Counted from the first letter of the stretch, positions 4,987-41,527 are shown. The stretch is DNA of 64,000 bases from an uncultured Acidobacteriota bacterium (GCA_902825945.1 CADECY010000005.1:90557-154556); one strand, 5' to 3'. The notes: generated from the letters alone by a model not told the origin. Translations and numbers: made by a program.

Positions 4987-6007
4987 CCACCCGAGCCTCC
5001 CGGGTTTGCAGGCTCTTCGCGGTGAAGTCGAGCAGCGTCGCGGTCACCGACAGAATCACCGGACCGAGGAAGATTCCCAGCACGCCGAACGCCTTCATTC
5101 CGCCCAACAACCCGAACAACACCAGGAGCGGATTCATTCCCGCGCGTCCGCTCACCACCCACGGCCGCACGAAGTTGTCGGAGTTGGCCACCACGATCGC
5201 GCCCCAGATCCCGAGAAAGATCGCCTTGCCCCACGATCCTTGTACCGCCAGTGCGATCGCGGCCGGACCCCACACGAGTCCGGTGCCGAAGATCGGAATC
5301 AGGGACAATACCGCCGCGATCACGCTCCAGAGGATCGGCGCATGGACACCCGCCGCCCACATACCGGCCCCCGTCAACGCGCCCTGCGCCGCGCCCACGG
5401 CCACCACGCCATACATGTTGGCGAGGATCGAATCGGACACCTGATTCAGCAACATTTCGACACGATCGCGCTCGATCGGAATCAGGCGGGGTAGCGCGAC
5501 GCGAATCCGGTCCGCGTCGCGAAAGAAGAAGAACAACGCCACGAGCGCGGTGACGATTTGAATGATCGACTCTCCAATTCCCGCGATGACGGAGCGGCCC
5601 ACCCCGAGCAGCGCGCGGCCACTGTGCGAGAGTTCTTCGAGAAGGCGGGGCCGCATCTCGTCCACTTCGAGTCCGGTGCGGTGGGAGATCCAGGCCAGCG
5701 GGCGCTCGGCCCACGCCGCGATCGCGTCCTTGCTCACCGAGCGGTACAAGTCGCGCAGTTCGTCGGCGGCGGCCACCACAGCCAGCGACAGCGGTAACAC
5801 CACGCACACGATGACGAAGAAAGTGGAGAGCATGGCCGCCAATCCGCGCGATCGCACGATGCGCGCCAAGCGGCGATGCACGGGCAGAAACACCACCGCG
5901 AGAACCGTAGCGGTGACGATCGCGAACAGAAACGGCCGCAACAACAGGAACGAGAGATACGCGGCGAGCGCCGTCAAAACCACGAGGATGAACGGCTGTC
6001 CGGTCAC
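4967..6007 (-). CDS. AI-2E family transporter (PerM/UPF0118-like permease)
   Basis: 346-aa polytopic membrane protein. N-terminus ILVVLTALAAYLSFLLLRPFLFAIVTATVLAVVFLPVHRRL is typical of the family. GTG start at 6007. Confidence 0.85.
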   Translation of the reverse strand: MTGQPFILVVLTALAAYLSFLLLRPFLFAIVTATVLAVVFLPVHRRLARIVRSRGLAAMLSTFFVIVCVVLPLSLAVVAAADELRDLYRSVSKDAIAAWAERPLAWISHRTGLEVDEMRPRLLEELSHSGRALLGVGRSVIAGIGESIIQIVTALVALFFFFRDADRIRVALPRLIPIERDRVEMLLNQVSDSILANMYGVVAVGAAQGALTGAGMWAAGVHAPILWSVIAAVLSLIPIFGTGLVWGPAAIALAVQGSWGKAIFLGIWGAIVVANSDNFVRPWVVSGRAGMNPLLVLFGLLGGMKAFGVLGIFLGPVILSVTATLLDFTAKSLQTREARVDAQAPR

Positions 6008-6008
6008 G

Positions 6009-6356
6009 TCAGTCCATCCATTCGTCCGCGGGGTCGAACTTCGGAAACACCACGATCAGCACCCTCATGCGGCCGATCGCGCGATGGCGCACGCCCGGCG
6101 GGATGAGGATGCAGCGCCCGGGCTTCAGATCGATCAGCTCATCGTCGAGTTGGAAGCGTGCGGCGGGCCCACACTCGAGGATGTAGTAGGTTTCGGTGAG
6201 CCGCCGATGATAATGCAGCGCGGCATCCTCGGAGATTTCGGTGAGATGGATGGTTCCCGGAAAGCTCTCGACATCGGCGAAGGCGCGGCGGGCGATGCCG
6301 CATGGACAAGGGACTCCCGGCAGATCGGCGAGGTCGACGACCGCGGGAGTGCTCAT
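6009..6356 (-). CDS. cupin domain protein (115 aa)
   Basis: Cupin-like HYHRRLTETYYILEG-type and PPGVRHRAIG motifs. Start set at ATG 6356, which overlaps (ATGA) the stop of the upstream gene. The longer 196-aa track ORF is rejected. Confidence 0.7.
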   Translation of the reverse strand: MSTPAVVDLADLPGVPCPCGIARRAFADVESFPGTIHLTEISEDAALHYHRRLTETYYILECGPAARFQLDDELIDLKPGRCILIPPGVRHRAIGRMRVLIVVFPKFDPADEWMD

Positions 6357-8404
6357 CCCGCCGGTTCCGCCGCCAGCTTGGCGAGCAGGCTCGCGGGCTG
6401 CCACAGCGAACCATGCACTCGCTCGAGTTCGCGTACGCGATCGTGGACACGGCGCCAGCCGGCCAGTTCCGCGTACTTCATCGGGCCGCCCCGATGCGGC
6501 GGAAAGCCGTAGCCAGTGACGTAGATCATGTCGATATCGACGGGCCGCGCCGCGATGCCCTCCTCGAGAATCCGGCAGCCTTCGTTGACGAGCGCGCACA
6601 AACAGCGATCGCGGATCTCGTCCGCCCGGATCTCGCGCCGCGTGATTCCGGCCCGTCTGGCGGCTTCGGCGGCGATCGACTCCACTTCAGGATCGTCAAT
6701 CCGGTTCCGCTCGTCGTCATATCGATACCAGCCGGCGCGCGTCTTCTGCCCGAAGCGGCCGGCCTCGCAAAGCATGTCCTCGATGAGCGGCTTGCGAACG
6801 GAAGGATCGTCGAGGTGGCGATGCTCCTTGCGGATGCGCCAACCGACGTCGAGTCCCGCGAGATCTCCCACCCCGAGCGGACCCATGGCCATTCCGAAGT
6901 CCACGAGCGCGGCATCCACATCGGCCGGACGCGCTCCCTCTTCAACGAGAAACTGCGCTTCCCGGCGATAGCAGTGGAACATGCGATTGCCTACGAATCC
7001 CCTGCAATTGCCCACCACCACGCCGACCTTGCCGAGAATCCTGGCGATACCGAGCGATGCGCCCGTCACTTCCGGGCTCGTCGCCTTGCCGCGCACGATC
7101 TCGAGCAGCCGCATCACTTGGGCGGGCGAGAAGAAGTGGTGTCCGATCACGCGCTCGGGCCGCCGGGTGGCCGCGGCGATCTGGTCGATGTCGAGCGACG
7201 AAGTGTTGGTCGCAAGGATCGCGTCGTGGCTTGCGAATGAATCGATATCGGCGAACACGCGCTTCTTGAGCACCATGTCCTCGAAAACGGCCTCGACGAT
7301 GACATTGGCGTTCTCCATGCCCGCGTATCCTTCGGCCTTCTGGATCCGTTCGATGCGGGAGTTTGCGTCGGCGGGACTCATCCGGCCCTTCGACGCGCTC
7401 GACTTGTACTGCGCCCGGATCGCGAGCATCGCCCGTTCGAGCGCATCTGGAGATTCGTCAGTCAGCAGCACGGAAACCCCGGCGTTCGCGTACGCCATCG
7501 CGATGCCGCGCCCCATGGTTCCGGCGCCGATCACCGCCGCGAGTTTGATCTCGGGAGTCACCTTCGGAACTCCGGGCACCTTCGCCACTTCGCGCTCTCC
7601 GAGGAAGACGTGAACCAGCGCCTTCGATTCGTTCGAGTAGAGGCATTCGCGAAACAACCGCTGCTCCTCGATGAGGCCTTGCGCGAAAGGCAGGCGGTTG
7701 GCGAGTTCCACGGCGGCGAGCGCCTGATTCGGCGCAAACAGTGGCTTCAGCTTGGGCGGGAGCTTCGGAAGAATGAAGGTGCTGAGCGACTGATCCTTGC
7801 CCCTGGTCGGCCGGGGACTCGTGAGCGCGGCCGCGAACCGCAGCGCGCCTTCGAGCAGATCGCCCTCAACGATCTCATCGATCAATCCGTTGTCGAGGGC
7901 CTCGGCTGCGGTAACGGGTGCTCCAGTCGCGCACATCACCGCCGCGCGATAGGAGCCGATCAGACGGGGAAGCCGCTGTGTTCCGCCGGCGCCGGGAATC
8001 AGACCGAGCTTCACCTCGGGTTGACCGAGCTGAGTGGCCGGACCCGCGATGCGGTAGTGGCAGGCGAGCGCGAGTTCGAGTCCACCGCCGAGCGCGGCGC
8101 CTTGCATCGCGGCGACCACAGGCTTCGGCGCCAGTTCGATGTCGTCGAGCACGTTGCCAAGGTGGACGTCGATCTCCTTTTCGCCCGAAACGATTCGGAC
8201 GAACTCGTTGATGTCATAGCCCGCGACGAAGTTCCGTCCGGCGCCGATGATCACGACGGCTCGCACGCCAGCATCGGCGATTGCTTCGTCCACGCGCGCT
8301 CCGAGCGATTGTGTCACGTCGGGGTTGATCGCGTTGACGGGCGGATTGTCGATCGTGATGATCGCGATCGCGTCTTTTTGGGAGATCCGGACCGGGGATG
8401 ACAT
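6353..8404 (-). CDS. bifunctional enoyl-CoA hydratase / 3-hydroxyacyl-CoA dehydrogenase (FadB/FadJ-like)
   Basis: N-terminal crotonase fold (AIITIDNPPVNA, GGGLELALACHYR), Rossmann AVIGAGTMGRGIA, and 3HCDH C-terminal domains. Start at ATG 8404 (MSSPVRISQ). The Arg/Gly-rich 226-aa upstream extension of the track ORF is rejected. Confidence 0.9.
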   Translation of the reverse strand: MSSPVRISQKDAIAIITIDNPPVNAINPDVTQSLGARVDEAIADAGVRAVVIIGAGRNFVAGYDINEFVRIVSGEKEIDVHLGNVLDDIELAPKPVVAAMQGAALGGGLELALACHYRIAGPATQLGQPEVKLGLIPGAGGTQRLPRLIGSYRAAVMCATGAPVTAAEALDNGLIDEIVEGDLLEGALRFAAALTSPRPTRGKDQSLSTFILPKLPPKLKPLFAPNQALAAVELANRLPFAQGLIEEQRLFRECLYSNESKALVHVFLGEREVAKVPGVPKVTPEIKLAAVIGAGTMGRGIAMAYANAGVSVLLTDESPDALERAMLAIRAQYKSSASKGRMSPADANSRIERIQKAEGYAGMENANVIVEAVFEDMVLKKRVFADIDSFASHDAILATNTSSLDIDQIAAATRRPERVIGHHFFSPAQVMRLLEIVRGKATSPEVTGASLGIARILGKVGVVVGNCRGFVGNRMFHCYRREAQFLVEEGARPADVDAALVDFGMAMGPLGVGDLAGLDVGWRIRKEHRHLDDPSVRKPLIEDMLCEAGRFGQKTRAGWYRYDDERNRIDDPEVESIAAEAARRAGITRREIRADEIRDRCLCALVNEGCRILEEGIAARPVDIDMIYVTGYGFPPHRGGPMKYAELAGWRRVHDRVRELERVHGSLWQPASLLAKLAAEPAG

Positions 8405-8439: not shown

Positions 8440-9738
8440 TTACAGTTTGTAGGGCGCCCGCATCTCCCGGCCCAGCAGTTCCGAAGCGGCCGGATCGTAG
8501 AGGATCTCTTGCTTGTCCGGGTCCCAATTGACGCGGCGGCCGGTGAGCATCGCGATCTGGCCGAGCCAGCCGGGCGTCGCCGAACGCAGCGCCACCCGAG
8601 CGGGTGTCAGCGTTTCCTTGCGCGACTTGACGCACTCGATGAACTGCGCGTAGTGATCGGGTGATTTCGTCAGGCGGATCTCGCCGTCTTTCACCGTCTC
8701 CTCGAGCAGGCTCGCGGGTCCGGCCTCGATGCCGCGCCGGTCCACCCAGATCCAGCCGCGCTCGCCGATCCAACGCGTACCGGCGCGAATATCGTCGTGG
8801 CCGCCCGCGATCACCATCGTTACGCCGCCGGAATACTTGGCGGTAAGCCGGTAGCGCGTGGCAGAGTTCCAAAGCTTGGTCCGCTCTGGATACTCGCCGG
8901 TGCCCTCCACGTGATACGGGCCAGTTTCGTCCCAACCCATTCCCCAATGCGCGATGTCGACGTGATGGCCCACCCAGTCCATGAGTTGCCCGCCGCCGTA
9001 GTCGAGCGACCAGCGCCAGTTGAAATGCGAGCGTGCCGGCGAGTACTTCGCTTCCGGTCCGGGGCCGAGCCAGCGATCCCAATTCAGCGTGGGCGGCGGT
9101 TCGATGAACGCGGTCCGATCAACGAACTTGCCATAGTCGAATGGACCGGAAGGCAGCCCGACCTCCACTCGGTGGATCTTGCCGAGACGCCCGTTCCGCA
9201 CCAGTTCGCAGGCCTGATGGAATTGAGCCCTCGACCGCTGCCAGCTTCCCGTCTGCCAGATCACCTTGTGTTTCGCGACCTCCTTCACGATGGCCAGCCC
9301 TTCGCGGAACGTTTGCGCGAGAGGCTTTTCGCCATAGATATCTTTCTTGGCGCGCGCCGCGAGCACGCCCACGACTCCGTGCCAGTTGTCGGGAACGGCG
9401 ATCGTCACCGCGTCGAGATCGCGCCGCGCGATCACCTCCTCGAACGCGTGATAGGTGGCGCAATCCGTGTTGGCGTACTGCTTGTCGACCCGCTTCTTCG
9501 CGTCCGAGAGATGCTCGTCGTCCACGTCGCAAACCGCGAGCACGCGCGCCGCCGGAACCTTGAAAAAGTTGTTCAGGTGTCCGGTTCCCATGCCGCCCAC
9601 GCCGATCACCCCCATTGTGACGCGGTCGCTCGGGGCGATACCTCCGGCGCGGCCGAGGGTTTGGGCCTTGACGATCATCGGAAGTCCGGCGGATAGGCCG
9701 ACTTTGAGAAGGGATCTGCGCGAGGTCATCCCGGACAT
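8440..9738 (-). CDS. Gfo/Idh/MocA family oxidoreductase with twin-arginine signal
   Basis: MSGMTSRRSLLKVGLSAGLPMIVKAQ (Tat-like), then Rossmann MGVIGVGGMGTGH. Start moved to ATG 9738. Confidence 0.85.
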   Translation of the reverse strand: MSGMTSRRSLLKVGLSAGLPMIVKAQTLGRAGGIAPSDRVTMGVIGVGGMGTGHLNNFFKVPAARVLAVCDVDDEHLSDAKKRVDKQYANTDCATYHAFEEVIARRDLDAVTIAVPDNWHGVVGVLAARAKKDIYGEKPLAQTFREGLAIVKEVAKHKVIWQTGSWQRSRAQFHQACELVRNGRLGKIHRVEVGLPSGPFDYGKFVDRTAFIEPPPTLNWDRWLGPGPEAKYSPARSHFNWRWSLDYGGGQLMDWVGHHVDIAHWGMGWDETGPYHVEGTGEYPERTKLWNSATRYRLTAKYSGGVTMVIAGGHDDIRAGTRWIGERGWIWVDRRGIEAGPASLLEETVKDGEIRLTKSPDHYAQFIECVKSRKETLTPARVALRSATPGWLGQIAMLTGRRVNWDPDKQEILYDPAASELLGREMRAPYKL

Positions 9739-9799
9739 CGTATCGTAATCGGAAAATCGCCGTAACGAAAACCCGCGTGGACGGATATAGTGATCGAGG

Positions 9800-10462
9800 A
9801 TGTCCGAAGGACGCGGGAACAACCCGGCCGATGCCGCCGAGCGTGAGCTCGTCGAGGCGGCGCGCCGCGATCCAGCTTCTTTCGCCGGACTCTATCGCCA
9901 CTTCTTCCCGCGCGTGTACAGCTTCATTTCGCGGCGTGTGGCGCGAAGCAGCGACGCCGAGGATCTGACATCGGAGGTCTTCCACGCCGTCCTCAAAGGG
10001 CTGCCGGGGTTCGAATGGCAAGGAGTGCCCTTCTCGGCCTGGATCTTCCGGATCGCGGCCTACACGATCGCCGATCACAGCGCGAGGCTGGCGCGCGAGG
10101 GGTCGATTCCGAATGTCGAGGACATCTCGGCCGAAGAAGTGCGGACCGTCGATGAGGACTGCCGTCTCGGACGCCTGATCTCGATGCTGCCCGCTGATCA
10201 ACAGCCGGTGTTGGAGTCGCGGTTCATCGAAGCGCACAGGCCGCGAAGGCGCGGCTCCAAATGTCCGGGAACACCGCCGTGGGTTCGGCGCCGTAGCGTG
10301 TCCGTTGTGCGCGGTTCCCAAAAAGAGAAGCCGGTGGCCCAAGTGGCCCGCGAATTGGGAAAGAGCGAGGGTGCGGTGCGGCAGTTGCAGTGCCGCGCGC
10401 TCGAATCGTTGCGGACCTGGCTGAACCAACCGGAACCGGAAAGGGGGCGTGACAATGGCTGA
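9800..10462 (+). CDS. ECF-type RNA polymerase sigma factor carrying an in-frame ~31-aa insertion in region 4
   Basis: Region 2 (DAEDLTSEVFHAVLKGL...FSAWIFRIAAYTIADH) and region 4 (LPADQQPVLESRFIE ... KPVAQVARELGKSEGAVRQLQCRALESL). A repeat-derived segment AHRPRRRGSKCPGTPPWVRRRSVSVVRGSQK splits region 4. Confidence 0.85.
   Translation: MSEGRGNNPADAAERELVEAARRDPASFAGLYRHFFPRVYSFISRRVARSSDAEDLTSEVFHAVLKGLPGFEWQGVPFSAWIFRIAAYTIADHSARLAREGSIPNVEDISAEEVRTVDEDCRLGRLISMLPADQQPVLESRFIEAHRPRRRGSKCPGTPPWVRRRSVSVVRGSQKEKPVAQVARELGKSEGAVRQLQCRALESLRTWLNQPEPERGRDNG
10232..10313 (+). repeat. MITE/REP-like small repeat, copy A (inside the sigma factor gene)
   Basis: 10232-10252 is the exact reverse complement of 41381-41401. 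10300-10313 is the exact reverse complement of 41321-41334. 7-bp terminal inverted repeat GCGCACA...TGTGCGC. Weaker similarity continues to about 10330. Confidence 0.6.
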
Positions 10463-30776: not shown

Positions 30777-31808
30777 CTATCGTGTGGGGCGTTCGGCGCC
30801 GGAGCGGCGCATGTACGGCCCCCGGCTGCCGTTGGGCAAAGTGGTGGTCTGGTCAGTGCGGGCGAGCCCCAGTTGATCCCCCGTCAGTCCACGCGCACCC
30901 TTGAGGTTGGCTCCCCGCAGGTCGGCGCCAGCCAGGTACGCTCCGTCGAACTTGGCTTGCTGAAGATCGGCTCCGCTGAAGTCGGCTCCGCCCATCCGCG
31001 CCTCTCGGAAATCAGCGAGAGAGGCCTTGGCCTTGATGAAACAGCAGCGGCTGAGGTCGGTCGAGGTAAATCGGGCGCCGCCGCATTCGCTCTGCGTCAG
31101 ATTGCAGTCTTGCAATTGGATATTGGTGAGGTTGGCGCCGGCGAAAACGGCACCGTAGAACCGCGACATCTGGATGCGGGCCCGGTGCAGGTTAGCCCCT
31201 TCGAAGGTGACACTCGAGAAATCGCACCCGTGGATCTTGGCCTGCAGCAGTTGCGCGCGGTTCAGATGCGCTCCATTGAACTGGCACTGGTGCAGTGATG
31301 CCTCGAGCCAGCGCGACTCCTCCATATGCGCGTTGTGCAGCGATGCTTCATTCATCCGTGCTTCCGAAAAATTGGCGGCCAGCAGCCAGCAAGCCTGCAT
31401 CCGCGCGTGGTCGAGTTTGGCACCCGACAGGTCCGCTCGATTCAACGTCGCTCCGCGCAAGTCGGCGAACTGCAGTTCCGCTCCGCTCAAGTTGCTGTCG
31501 GAGAGTTCGGCATCGATCCACGACGTATGGTCGAGCAGCGCTCCCGATAAGTTGACGCGCTGCCAACGGACGTCGCTCATGGTGGCGCGGGTCAGAATCG
31601 CGCGCTCACCCTTGGGTGCCTTGATGAGCCAACTCTCGTGAAGCTCGATGATCCGCTTCAGGTTCCGATCTGTCAGACCGGCACCGCTCGCCGGGGGCGG
31701 CGCCTCGACGACGGAACTTCCCGCTCTGCGTAGTTCCATTCGTAGTAGCTCATCGTCGGCGGCGGGCCAGGCTTTAGGAAATTTTTCGCCCTTCCGCTGG
31801 GCTATCAT
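30777..31808 (-). CDS. pentapeptide repeat protein
   Basis: Long run of A(D/N)LXX repeats (ADLRGATLNRADLSGAKLDHARMQ...ADLQQAKFDGAYLAGADLRGANLKGA). The start may be further downstream. Confidence 0.85.
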   Translation of the reverse strand: MIAQRKGEKFPKAWPAADDELLRMELRRAGSSVVEAPPPASGAGLTDRNLKRIIELHESWLIKAPKGERAILTRATMSDVRWQRVNLSGALLDHTSWIDAELSDSNLSGAELQFADLRGATLNRADLSGAKLDHARMQACWLLAANFSEARMNEASLHNAHMEESRWLEASLHQCQFNGAHLNRAQLLQAKIHGCDFSSVTFEGANLHRARIQMSRFYGAVFAGANLTNIQLQDCNLTQSECGGARFTSTDLSRCCFIKAKASLADFREARMGGADFSGADLQQAKFDGAYLAGADLRGANLKGARGLTGDQLGLARTDQTTTLPNGSRGPYMRRSGAERPTR

Positions 31809-33327: not shown

Positions 33328-34710
33328 GTGATACAATTGCCGCATGACTGCCAACAAGCTACCCATTGTTTTGCTGCATTAGCCATGTCCCTGCAGGCGC
33401 AGACACTGAACAGTCCAGCGAACGGGTCCACGGTCACCACCTCGATCGTGACTTTCAGTTGGAGTGCCGCGCCGGCCGCCGGCGAACGCTATGAAGTGCG
33501 CGTCTTTCACACGGTGACCGGCGCGCTCGAACTCAACATTTCATTCGGCCCCGGAATCAACAACGAACACTACACATTCCGTTCGGGAACTTACCGGGCG
33601 GACATTCGTCTCTGCAAGCCGCAGTGCGTCGCGGGAGCTTCGACGAACTTTACCGTGACTAACCGGACCGCCTCTCCGGGAACCGCCGCCAACGTGAACT
33701 GTACCACGGTCAATGACAATAATCAGAATCGCGTGGACTGCACCTGGAACGCCGTCGCGCTGGCTGACTTCTATCTGGCCCGCCTGGTGCAGGCTGGCAC
33801 CGGACCGGGGGGAGGAGCACTCACCGTTGCCGGGAACCAGATCGGATCCACTTCGGTCAGCCTCGTGGCGCCCAATGGTCCCCTCTCTTTCGTGGTCCAG
33901 GCATGTACTGGCGACGGCTGCGGGGGGCAAAGCAGCCCGGTCGTGGTGAATTCGAACTTTGGCTCGCCCCTCTTGCCGAGGATCTCCGAACCGATGGCCG
34001 GATCCGTCGTCGAGGCGGGCTCGAACGCTCCGGTTGCGCTCTTTGCGTGGAACCGCATTGCGGGGGACACGGGCGCTGGGGAGGTGGTCTACCGGCTCTA
34101 TATCAGCGATTTCTCCCGGAACGCGCCCGCCCTCGACGTCCTCACCACATCCAACTTTCAATCCGCCTTCCTGAATCCATCCAACCGCTATGATGCGCTG
34201 GTGATCGCCTACCCGAACTTTCTTCCGTTCGGGCCCACCTCGCCCATCACCGCTCCGGTTCAAGGACCGCCTGTTCCGCTCATCGCCCGCGGCCGGGTCC
34301 CGTCGAATCCGACCGTGAGCCAGCCTTGGTTTTCCGTCGGATTCGTCAACTTTCCGACACCCACGGGTCAGACCATGCGCGCCTCCTGGACGCCCCTTCC
34401 CGACGCTCAAGGACAGACGGGCAACCGGCTCTATCAATATCGCGTGATTGGCGTCTCGTTCGACTCTGGCATCAGGGCGACCGGTGTCACCCTCGAGAAC
34501 TCGGTCGATGTGCCGGCTTATGTGCCCGGCGGGTTCCCTGCCGGCAACGTACTGATCGGATATGTATTCGAGGTGCGCGCCTGCCAGCAGTTCGCGACCT
34601 GTACGGCAGGCTCGGAAACAGGCTGGGGGCCGTGGTCCGGTTCGCCGGGATCGGAAGGCTTCCGTTCCGAGTTCGGGATCAACAAGACATCGCGGCTGGG
34701 TGTCCCATAA
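33328..34710 (+). CDS. hypothetical secreted protein; the N-terminus is probably frameshifted (see finding)
   Basis: 460-aa Thr/Ser/Gly/Asn-rich ORF. The signal peptide appears split between two frames at a T-run (33369-33372). Confidence 0.5.
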   Translation: MIQLPHDCQQATHCFAALAMSLQAQTLNSPANGSTVTTSIVTFSWSAAPAAGERYEVRVFHTVTGALELNISFGPGINNEHYTFRSGTYRADIRLCKPQCVAGASTNFTVTNRTASPGTAANVNCTTVNDNNQNRVDCTWNAVALADFYLARLVQAGTGPGGGALTVAGNQIGSTSVSLVAPNGPLSFVVQACTGDGCGGQSSPVVVNSNFGSPLLPRISEPMAGSVVEAGSNAPVALFAWNRIAGDTGAGEVVYRLYISDFSRNAPALDVLTTSNFQSAFLNPSNRYDALVIAYPNFLPFGPTSPITAPVQGPPVPLIARGRVPSNPTVSQPWFSVGFVNFPTPTGQTMRASWTPLPDAQGQTGNRLYQYRVIGVSFDSGIRATGVTLENSVDVPAYVPGGFPAGNVLIGYVFEVRACQQFATCTAGSETGWGPWSGSPGSEGFRSEFGINKTSRLGVP

Positions 34711-34772: not shown

Positions 34773-34957
34773 TCAAAAATGCAACCGTAGCGTGTACTGA
34801 ACCTCTCGGCCGTAGTTGACCTGCGAGGTGATCCCGCCGAACTGCGTGCTCGTCACCGTCAGATTCGGATTGCCCGGCATCACGCTGTTCGTCAGGTTGT
34901 AGCCCTCGAACCTCAGCTCGAGCTTGAACCGCTCGGTGAGTGAGAGTTCTTGGAAAG
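34773..34957 (-). pseudogene. displaced 3' fragment of the TonB-dependent receptor gene (last 56 codons + stop); left direct repeat of the islet
   Basis: 34807-34940 is identical to 37897-38030. The fragment encodes SLTERFKLELRFEGYNLTN...GREVQYTLRLHF*, identical to the receptor C-terminus. A 1-nt indel at about 34946 breaks the frame upstream. Confidence 0.85.
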
Positions 34958-35113
34958 TGCCTGAATCCGATCTTCGGGACAAAACATCAGCCGGACGCCG
35001 CGACTTTTGTGGGAAATGCGCGGCGGCGCGGTTGTTCACCCCACCGCCTTCCATCCTACGCCGGGACATTGTGTTGCGCCGGAGATTACCTTATCCTGAA
35101 TCCAGGCAGCTAT

Positions 35114-36697
35114 ATGCACAACATCGAAATTCCAGATGGTCAAGCGGAGGCACTCAAGGCCAAGGCTGCGGCAAAGGGCCTCACTTTGGAGTCGTGGCTG
35201 GCTCAGCTTGCGGAGCCGGTGGCGCCGGTCAAGTTTTTACGATTCTTTTGCGTATATTCGCACCAGGACGAGGCACTCAGGCAGGAACTCCATGCATACC
35301 TGGAGTCAAGGGGGCTGTTCGATGAAATGGAGTATTGGTACGACTATGAGCTGAAAGCCGGACAAGACTTCTCAAAAGAAATCGAACGGCGCCTCGAGCG
35401 CGCAGATGTGTTCTTGTTCCTGCTGAGTGACGCATTTCTCTCCTCGGACTTTATCAACAATAAGGAAGCAAAACGCGCGGTCGAGAGGTTCCACGCAGGA
35501 GAGGCGCTGATCATTCCTGTCGACCTGGGGTTGACCAAAGGTCTTCCCGGGCACCTAGCCTTTTTGTGCAACTTGCAGTGGCTGCCTGACTACCCCAAGA
35601 TGGCTCTCACCGGCAACCCGGTGCCTGCTGAATCCGGCTTGAATGAGGCTGCTGACGCGAAGCGTCAGCAGATCTATGAAAAGGTCGCCGAGGGTGTTCG
35701 CCGGGCGCTAGGGAATCGCAATCACTTGTTGATTTCTGACGAATCGCCATTCTCCAGCGAACTCCGATCCCGCCTCCTCGAGCGGCGATTCGACTTGGGC
35801 ATTGGGAGGGTGCACTCCTTTCGCGACCCGTCGAGCGGCGGCTTGCCCTACATCCGCCGTTACGAGAATTTGCTGAGCGAATTCCTGGGCGATAGGGTCA
35901 GGGACAACTGCGTCTTCACAATATATCCGGATGAGTCAGTCACTAATGGGGGCGAAGAGGCCGAACTCGTCAAGGAGCTGAGCGAAAAGGGCAAGGGGAT
36001 TATTTGCTTCGAGTCTGGAACCTCCCTCCTCGATGCGGCCGTGAAGGAGGAAAGCGGCGGACGAGCTCTTGCGGACAGAAATCCGGCCTGCGTGATTCGT
36101 ACGAAACACAGCAAGGCGGCCTCGGAATTGACTGTCGAGGTCGAGCGATTTCTTTCGGACGCACGAGGAATCAAGCATGTCGTGATGTTGCCTGGCCCCC
36201 CTACTCCGAACTCTCTAGAGCGCTGGGGAGAATACCATCAGTTCCTGTCCAGACTCCTGGGGCAATACTGCGGTTCCGCGCCTGATCCGAGCCGCGGCGG
36301 CGCCGTCGCGATTACCGTCAACTCCACTCCCCCCAACTGGTCCAAGGACCCCAATCTCGCCCGTGAGGTTTTCGACTGCCTTCGGCTCGACCCTGCTTCC
36401 GACTCCTTGTGCATCATCTGCGCTAACGATGAAGCTGCTCTTTGCGTCTCGGAAGCATTCGAACAACATGTCAACCTCGGCGAGGACTGTGCGATGTTCG
36501 ACCGGCGCCGAGCGCTGCTTGTCGGCTTTGATGGCATAAGTGCGATGCGCGAGGCCATTCAGGCCGGGAAGCCCATGCTTACGATGGCCGTCGATCAGGA
36601 GAGCATGTGCAGACGAGCGTGCGACGTATTCGCGAAACGGCCGTACGATGCAAAACCACACGAATTAGATGCCCGGATCGAACGGCCCATGCGATAA
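35114..36697 (+). CDS. TIR-domain protein: RHH-like N-terminus + TIR_2-type domain + PBP1 (LacI/RbsB-type) ligand-binding-like C-terminal domain
   Basis: TIR: FFCVYSHQDEALRQELHAYLES...YWYDYELKAGQDFSKEIERRLERADVFLFLLSDAFLSSDFINNKEAKRAVERFHAGEALIIPVDL. C-terminus: CIICANDEAALCVSEAF...LVGFDGISAMREAIQAGKPMLTMAVDQESMCRRACDVF. Start at ATG 35114; the track start at 34940 lies inside the repeat. Confidence 0.8.
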   Translation: MHNIEIPDGQAEALKAKAAAKGLTLESWLAQLAEPVAPVKFLRFFCVYSHQDEALRQELHAYLESRGLFDEMEYWYDYELKAGQDFSKEIERRLERADVFLFLLSDAFLSSDFINNKEAKRAVERFHAGEALIIPVDLGLTKGLPGHLAFLCNLQWLPDYPKMALTGNPVPAESGLNEAADAKRQQIYEKVAEGVRRALGNRNHLLISDESPFSSELRSRLLERRFDLGIGRVHSFRDPSSGGLPYIRRYENLLSEFLGDRVRDNCVFTIYPDESVTNGGEEAELVKELSEKGKGIICFESGTSLLDAAVKEESGGRALADRNPACVIRTKHSKAASELTVEVERFLSDARGIKHVVMLPGPPTPNSLERWGEYHQFLSRLLGQYCGSAPDPSRGGAVAITVNSTPPNWSKDPNLAREVFDCLRLDPASDSLCIICANDEAALCVSEAFEQHVNLGEDCAMFDRRRALLVGFDGISAMREAIQAGKPMLTMAVDQESMCRRACDVFAKRPYDAKPHELDARIERPMR

Positions 36698-36716
36698 GCG
36701 ATCACCGGAGAAATCC

Positions 36717-37880
36717 ATGGCGAACCCAGCCCTAAGGAGTTCCGTTCGGAGGATCACTGACCTGAATGCGGGCGAGTTTCCTTTGGGCGCCCTCGTGGAG
36801 CACCCGATTTCGGCCATTGAGAGCATGGCTTGTGACACTGGGATGGCCAGTCGACCGGAGTGCGATGTCGGCTGTTTGGCTTGTTGCACCAACAGCGTCC
36901 ATTCTGCCCATGCCGTCGGACCGGTGACATTGTTGTCCCCTCTCTTGCTCACCGCTATCTCGCGTATGGCTGCGGAGCTTGCCCGGGGTGGAACTCACAT
37001 CATGTCAATAGATCGCTTTAACTTGTTCAGCGGATCGAATGAGATGGACCATCCACATTGCGTCGAACTTAGGGAGATTCTGTCAGCGTTCTTCGATGAG
37101 GTGCACAACAGGCCTCTGGGGGCGGTCTCCTCGGACGTGGTATTTCATCTATCTAGATCTCCGCACTTCAGGGCAAACCTGCAGTCGGTGGTACAGAAGC
37201 CGCTGCTGTGGGACAACGTCTGTATGGCGATTGACGAACAGATCGAGTTCCACAGCGCCCGTGAGTACTCTCGACACATGGAGGACCTGGAATGGGTGTG
37301 GAGAGTCCTTCGCCCGGTGCTCGGCCGCGAGGTGAGCCACGCGCGGAGAGAGAGGCAGGGCGAGCCCAGGGTTATCCTCAACATGCTCGTCCCCGATTCA
37401 GGGTCGGTATTCCAGGACAAATATCGTGCGCTCTATCCGGGTGGCCCCCTACGGGCAACCACGTTCGAGGAGTTGGCTCATCGCTACGTAACTCCCTTTG
37501 TCGGCGATATATTGGATGATGGCTCTGCTGTTCCTCGAGAGCACCGATTCACCACCCGAATCGCCAGACTTGCCGCGGTACCCGACTCGAGGGTCTTCGT
37601 CGGGCAAAACTACTACGCTCCAGCGGGCAGGGCTCGACTTCTCGTCCGGTTCAACGACCCAGGCTCCCGTCCGCCCAATGCCATCCGGACCAAGATCTAC
37701 CCGACAGGCGAGACCACGTTTCGGATCGCGGCCTCATTTACAACCTCCCCAGCATCCGAGGAGGAAGTTGCTGTTCATCCGAGCCGGACTCCCGCTTGGT
37801 TTCAGGCCTTGCGGGAGTTCGTCATTGACGTGGGAGATCGCGCCGGTAAAGCGTGGCTTGAATCAAAAATGCAGCCGTAG
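36717..37880 (+). CDS. hypothetical protein (387 aa), partner of the TIR gene
   Basis: ATG with GGAG 6 nt upstream, 19 nt after the TIR gene stop. No family recognised. One CX3CX2C cluster (ECDVGCLACC). The last 6 codons lie antisense within the receptor 3' end. Confidence 0.65.
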   Translation: MANPALRSSVRRITDLNAGEFPLGALVEHPISAIESMACDTGMASRPECDVGCLACCTNSVHSAHAVGPVTLLSPLLLTAISRMAAELARGGTHIMSIDRFNLFSGSNEMDHPHCVELREILSAFFDEVHNRPLGAVSSDVVFHLSRSPHFRANLQSVVQKPLLWDNVCMAIDEQIEFHSAREYSRHMEDLEWVWRVLRPVLGREVSHARRERQGEPRVILNMLVPDSGSVFQDKYRALYPGGPLRATTFEELAHRYVTPFVGDILDDGSAVPREHRFTTRIARLAAVPDSRVFVGQNYYAPAGRARLLVRFNDPGSRPPNAIRTKIYPTGETTFRIAASFTTSPASEEEVAVHPSRTPAWFQALREFVIDVGDRAGKAWLESKMQP

Positions 37881-38048
37881 GGTGTACTGCACTTCGCGGC
37901 CGTAGTTGACCTGCGAGGTGATCCCGCCGAACTGCGTGCTCGTCACCGTCAGATTCGGATTGCCCGGCATCACGCTGTTCGTCAGGTTGTAGCCCTCGAA
38001 CCTCAGCTCGAGCTTGAACCGCTCGGTGAGCGAGAAGTTCTTGGAAAG
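37863..38048 (-). repeat. right direct repeat = functional 3' end of the TonB-dependent receptor gene
   Basis: Matches 34773-34957, beginning exactly at the stop codon. 5 mismatches in the first 36 nt (all synonymous), then 134 identical nt. Confidence 0.85.
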
Positions 38049-41000
38049 GGTCGAGTCGAGCTGCCAGAAGTTCGGACCCGTGATTCCGGAGTATTGCAGC
38101 GGATTGGTGCGCGGCGTGAACGGAGTCGCCTGCTTGAACACGCTCGTATTGAACCAGCGCGACCATTCGCGCGTGGCGTTGCCCGGATCCCCCGTGACAT
38201 CGAGTTGCCCGAACCGCAGGAAGTTGCCCGAGTTCCACATGAAGATGTGGCTCGTCGACCAGCCGCCGAGGATCGCGTTGAGAACCGGATGCATGGTGGA
38301 GCCGAATCTCTGGCCCTTGCCGAACGGCAGGTCGATGGTGCTGCCGAGCGTCATGCGATGGCGCGGAAGGGTCGAGGGCAGCATCGTCAGGTTGTTCGCG
38401 AACTCGTCGGGAGCGTTGAAGTAGCCGCCCGTCGATTCCTGATTGTAATTGTAGCCCCACACCACGCTGTAGCCGTTGGCGAAACGGCGCTGGACGCGAA
38501 GCTGAACCGCCTTGTACCGGTTCTCGACTCCGGGCAGGAAGCCTTCTGTCAGATCGCCGTACTGCGGATACGGCCGGAGCAGCGTGGAGAGCGGGACGGT
38601 GCGCTGGCCGCGAAGTTGTCCCGGCATCACGCTGGCGGGCGTGCCGAAGAAGGGGTTCGGGACCGCCGCCGAGAGAGCGGTCTTGTAGTCGTAGCCGAAC
38701 TGCGGATTGACCATGTTCAACTGGCGTCCGAAGCCTGCGTTCCCGCCTTGTCCTTCCGGCACCATATTGTGTCCGAAGTTCATGAAGAAGGTGCCGTCGA
38801 CCTTGAGTCCGGCGACGAGATCGCGCTCAATCGTGAAATTGAAGCGATCGTTCATCGGGGTCTTCAGATTCTGCCGTGACCATGTCGCGGCGCCACCGAT
38901 ATTGGTGTAGCGTCCGGTGGTGCGGCCGAGCGGCGCCACGAGCGGATTCGACGCCGGGAACGGGTTCGAGAGCACGCCCTGCGGAACGCCCTGCAATTGC
39001 ACGGGTCCATTGGAAGTGACCGAGAAGCCGTCCGTCGCGGGCAGGCGCCACGAGTATCCGAGGATGCTCATGACCGGAACAGCGTAGCGCGCATAGCCGA
39101 CCCGAACCGCGGTCCGGTCGTTCACGCGGTAGGCGATGCCGACGCGCGGCAGCAAGTTCCGGCGCGGCGCGTGATAGAGTCCCTTGGCGTCATCGGTCGC
39201 ATAAACCCAAGCGCCGTTGAATGTAGGCTTCGGAGCGCCGCTGATCGTTGCCACCTGCGGCGGCATGACCGGAGTGTTCGCGCCCTGGAATTCGGGAATC
39301 GGATTACCGAGGTCGAGATAGCGCGACAGGCGCAGTAGGCGTTCCGACGGCGCGGTTTCGTACTCCCAGCGCATGCCGAGATTCAACGTGATCCGGCGGT
39401 TCAACTTGAAATCGTCCTGGAAGAAGAGGCCGTATTGATCCTGCTCGGTGTAGCGCGGCGCCACGTAGTTCGCGTTGAGCGAGTTGTCGATCGCGCCGAG
39501 TTGGAACGTGGCCCACGAACTTCCCGTGTTGAGCAGATCGGGCGCGAGGAACGTGTTCGCGGTGGGTGTCGCGTTGAACGGGAAGCTGCCGAGATTCGGC
39601 AATTGCGAGTACTCGAAGGCGTGGCGGTACGCCATTCCGAACTTCATGTAGTGGCGGCCGCGATCGTGTCCGAGGCTTCCTTGATAGGAATACTTGCGCG
39701 GACGATAGCTCCACCAGCTCGACTTGCCGAAGGTCGCGCCGCCGACGTTGAGCGCTGGGTAGTAGACTGCTGGCATGTCGGCGAGGTACGGCTTGTACCA
39801 GGCGTTGCCGGGCCAGAACTTCTCGAGTCCCTTCTCGCCGATCTGGGCCCAGGCGGAATCGTATTCGTCTTCCGAGTAGACGACGCCGAGGCGGAAGTTG
39901 AACACTGTCCGCGCGCTGAGCGTGTAGACGGAGTCGAACGCGCCATTGAGCGCGTCCATCAGTCCGCCGTTGTCGGACGAGGTGGCTTGCGTGCCGCCGT
40001 AGTTGTTATTGTCGAGCCGCGTGCGGATGACGCTGTAACGGGCGAAGGTGCGCCACTTCGGCGTGATCATCCAGTCGGTGCGATTCGAGAAGTTCCAGTA
40101 GTTGAGGAACCACGCATAGCCGGTCCGATAGTTGTTCACGCCCGTCGCGTCGTCCCCCGCGCCGTTCGGCTTCCAGATGTCGGCCAGGAACAGGCGCGAG
40201 GTGGGGTCGAAGCGCGATTGCGGAACGATGTTTCCCGCGAATGGCGTACGCGTGACCGCGTTCGTCTGCGTGTTGGTTTGTGTCGTCAGCGGATCGAAGA
40301 TCGGACGCATCACGCCCTGCCGGTTGAGCGAGCGTGTGTAGTCGCCCGCGCGCTCGAGGTCGGTCGGCAGCGTCATCACCTTCGTGTAGGGCTGCCGGTT
40401 GTTCCACTTTTCGAACGTGACGAAGTTGAAGAGCTTGTTCTTGACGATCGCGCCGCCGAAGGTACCACCGTAGACGTGATTCCGGACCACGTTCGGCGCC
40501 CGCGTGAACGCGTTCGACACGGCGTTGAACTTGGGGTTGCGGCCGAAGTAGTACGCACTGCCGTGATACTCGTTCGTGCCCGCCTTCATGCCGACGTTCA
40601 TGACACCACCCGCCGAGAATCCGGACTCGGCGTCGATCGAGTTTTGCTGCACGGTGAACTCCTGCACCGCGTCCATCGGTGGCGCGTACGATCCGCGGGA
40701 GCCGACGCCGATCGGCGATCCGTCGATCTGCACTTCGTTGCGGCCGCTGGTTTGTCCGCCGACATCCACTCCGGTGGTCGAGAGCTGATAGAAGGGATTG
40801 CGCTTGGAAACATCCGAGTATCGATTCACCACCGCGGGATCGAGCAATGCCAGCGTGAACGGATTCCGCGCGAGCACCGGAAGCTCCTTGAGCATTTTGC
40901 CGTCGATCGTCTGCGAAAGGGTCGTGGTGTTGAACTGGATCTCGACGGCGGAATCGGAGACGGTGACCGTCTGGTTCACGTCGCCTACTTTCAGGGCCAT

Positions 41001-41297
41001 GTTGACCGAGAGGTCAGACCGGACCAAGACCTGCACGTTCTCGTTCGTGGATTTCCCGAAGCCTTGGAATTCGGCGGTCACCGAGTAGGTGCCGGGCTCA
41101 ACGAAATCGAACAGGTAGTGTCCGGTTTCGTCGGTGGTGCGCGTGGTGGCGGTCTTCGTTTTGGCGTTGACCAAGGTGACCGTGGCGCCAGCGATGGCGG
41201 AGTTGGTGGGGTCGGTGATGATCCCCTGGACCCTTCCGCGATAATCCTGCGCGAAGGCAATGCCGCACGCAAGCAGCGTGATCAGCAGTCTGTTCAT
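37863..41297 (-). CDS. TonB-dependent receptor with CarboxypepD_reg-like N-terminal domain
   Basis: Signal MNRLLITLLACGIAFAQ, then RGRVQGIITDPTNSAIAGATVTLVN...GHYLFDFVEPGTYSV, a barrel region of over 1000 aa, and C-terminal ...YTLRLHF. Start set at ATG 41297. Confidence 0.9.
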   Translation of the reverse strand: MNRLLITLLACGIAFAQDYRGRVQGIITDPTNSAIAGATVTLVNAKTKTATTRTTDETGHYLFDFVEPGTYSVTAEFQGFGKSTNENVQVLVRSDLSVNMALKVGDVNQTVTVSDSAVEIQFNTTTLSQTIDGKMLKELPVLARNPFTLALLDPAVVNRYSDVSKRNPFYQLSTTGVDVGGQTSGRNEVQIDGSPIGVGSRGSYAPPMDAVQEFTVQQNSIDAESGFSAGGVMNVGMKAGTNEYHGSAYYFGRNPKFNAVSNAFTRAPNVVRNHVYGGTFGGAIVKNKLFNFVTFEKWNNRQPYTKVMTLPTDLERAGDYTRSLNRQGVMRPIFDPLTTQTNTQTNAVTRTPFAGNIVPQSRFDPTSRLFLADIWKPNGAGDDATGVNNYRTGYAWFLNYWNFSNRTDWMITPKWRTFARYSVIRTRLDNNNYGGTQATSSDNGGLMDALNGAFDSVYTLSARTVFNFRLGVVYSEDEYDSAWAQIGEKGLEKFWPGNAWYKPYLADMPAVYYPALNVGGATFGKSSWWSYRPRKYSYQGSLGHDRGRHYMKFGMAYRHAFEYSQLPNLGSFPFNATPTANTFLAPDLLNTGSSWATFQLGAIDNSLNANYVAPRYTEQDQYGLFFQDDFKLNRRITLNLGMRWEYETAPSERLLRLSRYLDLGNPIPEFQGANTPVMPPQVATISGAPKPTFNGAWVYATDDAKGLYHAPRRNLLPRVGIAYRVNDRTAVRVGYARYAVPVMSILGYSWRLPATDGFSVTSNGPVQLQGVPQGVLSNPFPASNPLVAPLGRTTGRYTNIGGAATWSRQNLKTPMNDRFNFTIERDLVAGLKVDGTFFMNFGHNMVPEGQGGNAGFGRQLNMVNPQFGYDYKTALSAAVPNPFFGTPASVMPGQLRGQRTVPLSTLLRPYPQYGDLTEGFLPGVENRYKAVQLRVQRRFANGYSVVWGYNYNQESTGGYFNAPDEFANNLTMLPSTLPRHRMTLGSTIDLPFGKGQRFGSTMHPVLNAILGGWSTSHIFMWNSGNFLRFGQLDVTGDPGNATREWSRWFNTSVFKQATPFTPRTNPLQYSGITGPNFWQLDSTLSKNFSLTERFKLELRFEGYNLTNSVMPGNPNLTVTSTQFGGITSQVNYGREVQYTLRLHF

Positions 41298-41320
41298 TGC
41301 GAGACCTCTCTTTCGTGGAA

Positions 41321-41401
41321 CGCGCACAACGGACTCGCTCCGGCGCCCGGACATTGGCGTGTTGCTCCACTGTTGGCGCCGCGCCTTCGCGGCCTGTGCG
41401 C
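41321..41401 (-). repeat. MITE/REP-like small repeat, copy B (leader region of the receptor gene)
   Basis: Both termini are exact reverse complements of the copy A termini (21 nt and 14 nt, extending to about 27-30 nt with 1-2 mismatches). The central ~25 nt is rearranged. Confidence 0.6.
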
Positions 41402-41527
41402 TCAAGGCCGGGCCTCGCCAGCGTCGGAACCAGGACGCGGAAAGCGCCGGCGAACTCTTGAATCGTGTGGTTATTCTATGTCCGCCGGCGCTCCGGAGTC
41501 AATTCGAAACCGAGTGATCGGCTGTTA

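Follow-up and report, generated by a model that had tools for sequence, protein, structure and literature searches.

Candidate conflict module joining a TIR domain and a flytrap-type sensor domain to a radical-SAM-like protein in an uncultured Acidobacteriota bacterium

Introduction

Thoeris is a small operon arranged around a bacterial TIR protein with a catalytic Glu, in which the TIR domain is the conserved signal generator and a ThsA-type protein, with SIR2/SLOG or TM/Macro domains, its partner. Cyclic oligonucleotide-based antiphage signaling systems (CBASS), pyrimidine cyclase systems for antiphage resistance (Pycsar) and type III CRISPR systems with CARF effectors combine a conserved enzyme gene with a ligand sensor fused to a variable toxic effector, the TIR protein Cat1 being one such effector. 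Radical S-adenosylmethionine (radical-SAM) enzymes can also be antiviral effectors, as exemplified by the prokaryotic viperins (pVips). Here, we describe a two-gene module located in a 64,000-nt stretch of DNA from an uncultured Acidobacteriota bacterium (GCA_902825945.1 CADECY010000005.1:90557-154556), further referred to as the window. Its first gene encodes a TIR domain fused to a predicted small-molecule-binding "flytrap" domain of the sugar-binding type, and its second gene encodes a protein which is probably a divergent radical-SAM enzyme. The module is most likely a variant of the TIR-effector conflict systems with a core composed of a radical-SAM-like protein and a sensor domain.

A further group of related systems comprises the effector-swapping conflict systems, reported to be preponderant in multicellular prokaryotes, in which TIR and calcineurin-type phosphoesterase belong to the variable effector domains (Kaur, Burroughs, Iyer and Aravind 2020, PMC7159879). 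In that survey, the only mention of a periplasmic-binding-protein (PBP) domain is among the extracellular variable domains, and radical-SAM domains are mentioned solely for peptide modification (PMC7159879). Full-text literature searches returned no description of a TIR/PBP-fold/radical-SAM combination, of TIR with LacI or of Peripla_BP with TIR_2.

Results

The gene pair

The module consists of two co-directional genes on the plus strand. Gene 1 (35114..36697; ATG at 35114, stop codon at 36695-36697) is an open reading frame (ORF) of 527 aa encoding a cytoplasmic protein with TIR and PBP-fold parts, and gene 2 (36717..37880; ATG at 36717, stop codon at 37878-37880) is an ORF of 387 aa representing a rare unannotated family. 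The 19-nt spacer between them contains the GGAG ribosome-binding site of gene 2 (36707..36710, plus strand), placed 6 nt upstream of its ATG. All these positions had been proposed in a first-pass annotation of the window and were borne out by the ORF check. The corresponding proteins in the public collection agree in length (P0009, 527 aa, identical to the gene 1 product, and P0001, 387 aa, for gene 2).

The unique segment of 2917 bp (34946-37862) contains gene 1 and gene 2 only. Its GC content was 57.9% compared with 63.0% for the whole window, which placed it below all 1105 same-size stretches elsewhere in the window (minimum 61.1%, mean 63.4%, standard deviation 1.1%). The GC content at the third codon position was 67%, compared with 73-84% in the neighboring genes. 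The dip in GC claimed in the first-pass annotation is real, although it is milder than the hand counts of 48-57% against 60-73% had indicated. A GC content of the pair lower than that of its flanks was also observed in six of seven other loci. The gene pair is compositionally foreign, flanked by repeats and built around a TIR domain with a catalytic-type Glu.

Conservation of the pair and exchange of the N-terminal part

Gene 2 directly followed a co-directional flytrap-domain gene in all 13 other loci with a readable upstream side (L001-L009, L011, L012, L013 and L018, of which L002/L003 and L005/L006 are near-duplicates), so that the two genes, suggested earlier to be worth checking for co-occurrence, were adjacent in 14 of 14 loci when the window was included. 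The spacers in the other loci ranged from -4 to 20 nt. Pairwise identities of the flytrap domains and of the gene 2 products were correlated across eleven loci (r=0.93; Mantel test, 0/5000), with gene 2 being the more conserved partner (mean identity of 47% versus 28% for the flytrap domain). In one case, the 1155-aa protein P0019 (L018 5259-8726, on a 10.7-kb contig), both parts were joined in a single polypeptide with the order TIR_2, Trypsin_2, flytrap and gene 2. The pair is a genuine co-inherited two-gene module, and the flytrap domain and gene 2 are its obligatory partners.

The N-terminal part of gene 1 was variable. TIR_2 was identified in most loci; in L008, its place was taken by a calcineurin-like metallophosphatase (Metallophos), and the L001 variant (8523-10004) had no TIR domain and an N-terminus without a Pfam match, which looked winged-helix-like by eye alone. 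With the N-terminus swappable and the flytrap and gene 2 constant, the conserved core of the module is thus the flytrap with gene 2, and the TIR domain behaves as a replaceable warhead.

Some individual copies deserve a comment. The trypsin-like part of P0019 carries, as judged by eye, G-D-F-D-G in place of the catalytic G-D-S-G-G, so the protease may be inactive. In L013 (1495-2495; WNFO01138079.1), a frameshift splits the gene 2 homologue into two ORFs, which represents either a pseudogene or a sequencing error. The L001 copy adjoins a gene for a TraG-like type IV coupling protein and a weak match to an XOO_2897-like deaminase, and this neighborhood suggests a conjugative element.

The flytrap domain of gene 1

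What is conserved across the gene 1 family is a core (35720..36661, plus strand; aa ~203-516) with a type-I PBP fold of the ribose/allose-binding, LacI-like kind. Its N-terminal limit (aa 203-245) was placed by family conservation and by eye. As most members escaped word-indexed searches made with gene 1 or its C-terminal domain alone, the gene 2 homologues served as the starting point, and the family was collected from their loci. The family profile compared with PDB sequences matched allose- and ribose-binding proteins with E values from 2.4e-11 to 4e-9, and the hhalign comparison with the E. coli ribose-binding protein (RBP) gave a probability of 94.6% and an E value of 7e-8 over 208 columns spanning RBP residues 36-268. 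The single gene 1 sequence gave a match to Pfam Peripla_BP_4 below the gathering threshold (E 1e-4).

Only 18 positions were invariant among eleven family members sharing ~20-45% identity, and R370, N438, D439 and D473 were among them. In the alignment with RBP, R370 fell on R141, N438 on N190 and D473 on D215, the three RBP residues which we take to be ribose contacts (PDB 2DRI).

No transmembrane or signal segment was detected in gene 1 (maximum 19-aa hydropathy of 1.19). Combined with the PBP fold, this points to a cytoplasmic "Venus-flytrap" domain, resembling the LacI core and fused to TIR, which is predicted to bind a small molecule. The N-terminus of gene 1 is TIR and not a LacI-type helix-turn-helix. 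A true periplasmic binding protein was considered and rejected, as there is neither a signal peptide nor any adjoining ATP-binding cassette (ABC) transporter gene. The description of gene 1 as a TIR protein was therefore correct but incomplete, the LacI/RBP-type ligand-binding domain having been missed.

The TIR domain and the N-terminal extension of gene 1

The TIR_2 domain of gene 1 (35243..35530, plus strand; aa 44-139) was recognized by Pfam well above the cut-off (E 2.3e-13, 51.2 bits versus 28), and the TIR domain proposed at the outset was thereby confirmed. The PADLOC model ThsB1 matched with an E value of 1e-20 at profile positions 5-98 of 319, that is, in the TIR core alone, and the SAVED_TIR model matched the TIR part alone (E 1.3e-5). 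Cat1 was found among weak TIR matches in PDB. Glu118 (codon 35465-35467) was aligned to the Glu of the W..YEL motif in the AbTir NADase (7uwg and 8g83) and in 7uxr, presumably the catalytic residue, and this Glu was kept in the TIR-bearing homologues from L004, L009, L002, L005 and L012. The TIR domain of gene 1 retains the NADase-type catalytic Glu, and cleavage of nicotinamide adenine dinucleotide (NAD+) is predicted from these alignments.

The window copy begins with a 38-aa N-terminal extension (35114..35227, plus strand), which occurs only in this copy, being missing from the L004 and L009 homologues, and which weakly resembles ribbon-helix-helix antitoxins. The matches were sub-threshold (FitA-like, E 0.012; ParD, E 0.023), and the AlphaFold2 (AF2) model of this part contained two helices with a predicted local distance difference test (pLDDT) score of about 72-75. 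A GTG at 35219 is a candidate alternative start, and a GC hairpin followed by a T-run (35215-35229) separates the extension from the TIR domain.

Gene 2

Gene 2 carries the radical-SAM-type motif Cys49-x3-Cys53-x2-Cys56 (36861..36884, plus strand), a candidate [4Fe-4S] site located in the loop after beta-1. The CX3CX2C arrangement was invariant in 15 of 15 full-length family members sharing 35-70% identity; the adjacent Cys57 was not conserved. The S105-G-S-N-E109 sequence (37029..37043, plus strand) may be the counterpart of the "GGE" SAM-binding motif of radical-SAM enzymes, with N108, E109 and D111 being invariant across the family. In total, about 75 residues of gene 2 were invariant, many of them polar.

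The AF2 model of gene 2 (pLDDT 79.8, predicted TM-score 0.82) showed a (beta/alpha)6 core of six beta-alpha units (aa 31-267) and, C-terminal to it, a beta-rich domain (aa 281-371), with the Cys loop lying between the strand 31-34 (beta-1) and the helix 75-90 (alpha-1). The Foldseek comparison of this model, which had been recommended as a check, placed radical-SAM proteins at the top: the first four matches among the predicted viral structures of BFVD were of the radical-SAM type (best E 3.1e-5, probability 1.00), and DesII and TsrM came first in PDB, both weakly (E about 0.01-0.02). The gene 2 family profile was also compared by hhalign with 60 E. coli K-12 proteins from four annotated regions, and the five radical-SAM enzymes present in this sample ranked 1, 2, 4, 5 and 20 of 60 (Mann-Whitney p=0.0007). 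The enrichment was weak (E 0.002 for PflA). In these alignments, CX3CX2C was in register with MoaA and PflA, and the invariant S-G-S-N-E fell on the "GGE" of MoaA.

Several results count against the assignment of gene 2 to the radical-SAM enzymes. No match was found in Pfam, NCBIfam or PADLOC, and relaxing the Pfam threshold to E<=10 brought no match for any of the 8 homologues. The search of PDB sequences with the gene 2 profile (hmmsearch, E<=10) returned two chance-level matches and no radical-SAM enzyme, the TM-scores of the Foldseek matches were low (0.2-0.4), and, at the position before the third Cys, where an aromatic residue is usual, Ala or Gly is found. Each supporting line is weak on its own; combined, the motif, the modeled fold and the alignments make a divergent radical-SAM enzyme the best reading of gene 2, and one that we regard as quite probable.

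The family comprised 8 clusters in a collection of 5.8 billion proteins, and an exhaustive profile search of 1.84 billion cluster representatives yielded about 25 relatives. Besides family members, the latter search returned one spurious repetitive protein (P0034) and no distant annotated relatives. The gene 2 family is tiny, sharply bounded and named in no database. The initial view that gene 2 belongs to no recognized family holds for Pfam, NCBIfam and PADLOC but has to be qualified by the invariant CX3CX2C and the radical-SAM-like fold.

Comparison with described systems

The module resembles Thoeris in being a small operon around a bacterial TIR with a catalytic Glu, the TIR core of which matches the PADLOC ThsB model. 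It differs in having no ThsA-type partner and in the fusion of the TIR domain to a PBP-fold sensor, with no SIR2, SLOG or Macro domain in gene 2. As other effector domains can take the place of TIR, it behaves here as the effector and not, as in Thoeris, as the conserved signal generator. Membership in Thoeris was rejected after gene 2 and the flanking genes had been checked and no ThsA had been found beside gene 1.

The likeness to CBASS, Pycsar and the CARF effectors of type III CRISPR systems lies in the layout itself, a conserved enzyme gene accompanied by a ligand sensor fused to a variable toxic effector. In contrast to these systems, the candidate signal enzyme is radical-SAM-like and not a CD-NTase, cyclase or Cas10, and the receptor has a type-I PBP fold in place of SAVED, CARF, STING or SLOG. 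CBASS and Pycsar were rejected as no CD-NTase, pyrimidine cyclase or known receptor domain was detected on either gene with PADLOC and Pfam. The earlier statement that the pair fits no described TIR system was upheld in these comparisons: ThsA, SIR2, SLOG, Macro, SAVED, STING and CD-NTase were not found, and no PADLOC model corresponded to gene 2.

The prokaryotic viperins share with gene 2 the CX3CX2C motif and a partial barrel, and the best structural matches of gene 2 are radical-SAM proteins. However, pVips are stand-alone effectors with no TIR-flytrap partner and, unlike them, gene 2 shows no HMMER-level homology to Pfam Radical_SAM (PF04055) or to radical-SAM enzymes in PDB. In turn, the C-terminal ~310 aa of gene 1 resemble ribose/allose-binding proteins and the corresponding domain of LacI/GalR, aligning over nearly the whole E. 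coli RBP with the equivalents of R141, N190 and D215 kept, whereas gene 1 as a whole is cytoplasmic, fused to TIR and devoid of a signal peptide, a LacI helix-turn-helix and an ABC partner. With the effector-swapping conflict systems, the module shares variable TIR and calcineurin-type phosphoesterase effectors; the cores of those systems (vWA-MoxR, GTPase, iSTAND and others) are not present in it (PMC7159879).

The direct repeat and the receptor gene

The islet is flanked by a direct repeat of 173 nt with 97% identity and a spacing of 3090, extending to ~186 nt if a 1-nt indel is allowed. The right copy (37863..38035, with homology continuing to ~38049) is the authentic 3' end of an intact gene encoding an outer-membrane beta-barrel receptor of 1180 aa (37863..41405, minus strand), which is convergent to gene 2 and whose 3' end is duplicated around the islet. 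The receptor matched OMP_b-brl_4 (E 3.6e-137) and CarboxypepD_reg (E 4e-19) in Pfam. The left copy (34773..34945, with homology continuing to ~34958 and a 1-nt deletion) is an orphan fragment of the same 3' end in the minus-strand reading, and its translation matches the last 57 aa of the receptor ORF. The last 18 nt of gene 2 overlap the 3' end of the receptor gene inside the right repeat. The mismatches between the repeat copies were concentrated in the 35 nt adjoining the receptor stop codon. Neither an integrase nor a recombinase gene was found in the islet, nor a tRNA gene in the window. An island of the tRNA/integrase type was therefore rejected, though direct repeats of the 3' end of a target gene are present.

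The locus L004 is a syntenic relative of the window. Its flanking proteins shared 88-93% identity with their window counterparts, and the C-terminus of the receptor 97.6%. L004 holds the pair at the same place, with gene 1 only 40.5% and gene 2 only 70.4% identical to the window copy; close relatives therefore carry strongly diverged alleles at one and the same locus. The fn3-like ORF (33328-34710) and the repeat are lacking in L004, where the distance between the phosphoribosyltransferase and TIR genes is just 306 nt. The region missing from L004 (33328-34945) comprises a 460-aa ORF with a weak fn3 match and the orphan receptor fragment.

The cassette appears to have entered by insertion or replacement through recombination at the 3' end of the receptor gene; no empty site was found. 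This could have happened, for instance, by a Campbell-type single crossover of a circularized donor fragment carrying the cassette and the receptor 3' end.

The leader upstream of gene 1 (34946..35113, plus strand) is islet-specific DNA unlike the corresponding region of L004, and it contained no match to a sigma-70-type promoter or to an Rfam family. Nothing of use came from scanning the islet for Rfam families, promoters and terminators. The upstream housekeeping genes include one for a pentapeptide-repeat protein (30777-31808, minus strand; 343 aa, Pfam E 1.6e-52), whose L004 counterpart is 91% identical.

Genomic context in other loci

The distribution of the module was patchy and included a Deltaproteobacteria metagenome-assembled genome (L010) and several unrelated metagenomic backgrounds. 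The genome scan yielded one locus, which was cut at the gene. In six contigs (L002, L003, L005, L006, L012 and L018), the module adjoined the 3' end of malQ. In L002 (7919-10565), L005 (3345-5415), L012 (9962-12602) and L018 (5259-10235), a gap of 1-18 nt separated the end of the module from the 3' end of the convergent Glyco_hydro_77 (malQ) gene, and glgC was located beside malQ in the three contigs reaching that far. The malQ (GH77) products of L002 and L018 were only 46% identical despite the shared position of the module. The adjacency to malQ could reflect an insertion hotspot at the 3' end of a gene, as in the window, or long vertical retention.

Downstream of the pair in L011, at a distance of ~1.8 kb, is a gene (5108-7684) for an 858-aa Ser/Thr kinase with TPR repeats, the kinase domain of which matched many PADLOC PD-T4-6 models (E 2e-80); these matches are probably generic to the kinase fold.

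Discussion

We read the pair as a self-contained, horizontally mobile two-gene conflict module, probably serving anti-phage defense or abortive infection, and propose this tentatively, as the likeliest single account. The radical-SAM-like enzyme and the flytrap domain would form the conserved sensing or signaling core. Upon a trigger such as infection, the gene 2 product would make, or stop removing, a sugar- or ribose-containing small molecule or, alternatively, would alter its contact with the flytrap domain. Closure of the flytrap would then license the TIR domain to assemble and to destroy NAD+, resulting in cell arrest.

A more specific version assumes that the divergent radical-SAM enzyme makes a messenger containing ribose or another sugar, possibly a SAM-derived one (e.g., of the 5'-deoxyadenosine type), which is read by the cytoplasmic PBP-fold receptor and switches on interchangeable effectors, namely TIR NADase, calcineurin-like phosphoesterase or trypsin-like protease. 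Such an arrangement would constitute an immune chemistry outside those described so far, and we consider it a speculative, rather unlikely elaboration.

Several observations weigh against the conflict-module interpretation or its messenger version. The P0019 fusion of the supposed "synthase" and "receptor" is explained no less well by direct contact between the proteins than by a diffusible messenger. In the AF2 model of gene 1, the TIR part was good, and the PBP part was of low confidence (pLDDT 57); this model was not used for the fold search. Housekeeping neighbors were found in the window (phosphoribosyltransferase, fn3-like ORF and outer-membrane receptor) as well as in L002, L010, L011, L012 and L018, with no recognizable defense island, and the PADLOC scan of neighbors in L001, L007, L010 and L011 gave a generic Ser/Thr kinase in L011 as the sole match, on which grounds a defense-island context was rejected. 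The tblastn searches of plasmids and phages with gene 2, together with the IMG/VR scan, revealed no homologue. Finally, retention next to malQ over deep divergence looks vertical, which is atypical for defense genes. Of the first-pass picture of an islet with att-like repeats and defense cargo, the repeats (173 nt, 97%) remain, but the cargo part is weakened by the missing integrase, the housekeeping neighbors and the lack of phage, plasmid and IMG/VR homologues, and a location in defense islands, which was to be checked, did not find support. A role in defense or NAD signaling would therefore follow from domain logic and not from the context.

An alternative is a non-defense regulatory or metabolic module. 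In such a module, gene 2 would, like DesII, apply radical-SAM chemistry to a sugar or nucleotide-sugar, and gene 1 would be a ligand-responsive regulator or partner whose N-terminal output domain (TIR, phosphoesterase or possibly a DNA-binding one) adjusts metabolism and does not kill infected cells. Besides the housekeeping contexts, the adjacency to malQ in six contigs across deep divergence, with glgC next to it where readable, and the absence of the gene 2 family from phage and plasmid collections, this explanation is favored by the sugar-binding type of the sensor domain, by the nucleotide-sugar radical-SAM enzyme DesII being the best structural match in PDB, and by the TIR-less L001 variant with an N-terminus that looks winged-helix-like by eye alone. 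However, no metabolic partner gene was common to the loci, and malQ is convergent and not co-transcribed with the module. The composition is foreign in most loci, the distribution extremely sparse and patchy, and, in close relatives, allelic divergence at a shared locus greatly exceeds that of the flanks. Moreover, the N-terminal modules (TIR with its Glu, calcineurin-like phosphoesterase and trypsin-like protease) make up a typical repertoire of toxic effectors. We consider a metabolic role unlikely, while it is the strongest of the rival explanations.

The strict adjacency, the co-divergence and the physical proximity implied by the natural fusion would also be expected of a toxin-immunity (addiction-type) pair operating with no small-molecule signal, in which gene 2 would silence the TIR toxin via the flytrap, its loss or sequestration would release the toxin, and the Cys motif would be structural or redox-sensing. 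The failure of sequence hidden Markov models to recognize gene 2 as a radical-SAM protein and the weak resemblance of the N-terminal extension of the window copy to ribbon-helix-helix antitoxins are in line with such a pair. On the other hand, a protein of 387 aa with ~75 invariant residues, many of them polar, is enzyme-like and no simple antitoxin, and the toxin-first order and the sizes are atypical of type II toxin-antitoxin pairs. The permanent fusion in P0019 is hard to square with release by antitoxin loss, and the invariant sugar-contact residues in the flytrap pocket argue for a small ligand, making a toxin-immunity pair improbable.

Least probable is a Thoeris-like polarity, in which the TIR domain would make the signal, the flytrap would sense an infection cue and gene 2 would be the effector, e.g., a viperin-like one producing an antiviral nucleotide analogue or destroying an essential metabolite. 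In its favor are the similarity of the TIR core to ThsB1 (E 1e-20), the precedent of antiviral radical-SAM effectors and the enzyme-like character of gene 2, which is the better conserved of the two partners and rich in invariant polar residues. However, a signal generator would not be expected to swap under a constant effector, as TIR does in L008 (Metallophos) and L001 (unassigned), and no SLOG, Macro or STING domain able to receive a TIR product was recognized in gene 2 with Pfam, NCBIfam or PADLOC.

For the conflict module itself, the residues offered for mutational tests are E118 in the TIR domain, C49, C53 and C56 in gene 2, and R370, N438 and D473 in the flytrap domain. The structure of the repeat illustrates how a two-gene cassette can enter the 3' end of a housekeeping gene with no recombinase of its own.

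The module defines an unnamed protein family with a clear cofactor motif and about 25 relatives in 1.84 billion clusters. If the proposed reading is true, the controls of bacterial TIR NADases would gain both a new enzyme class, radical SAM, and a new receptor fold, the flytrap of the LacI/RBP type, and the module would point to unexplored signaling or sensing chemistry. A messenger made by a radical-SAM enzyme, if this was the case, would be a categorically new chemistry for immune signaling.

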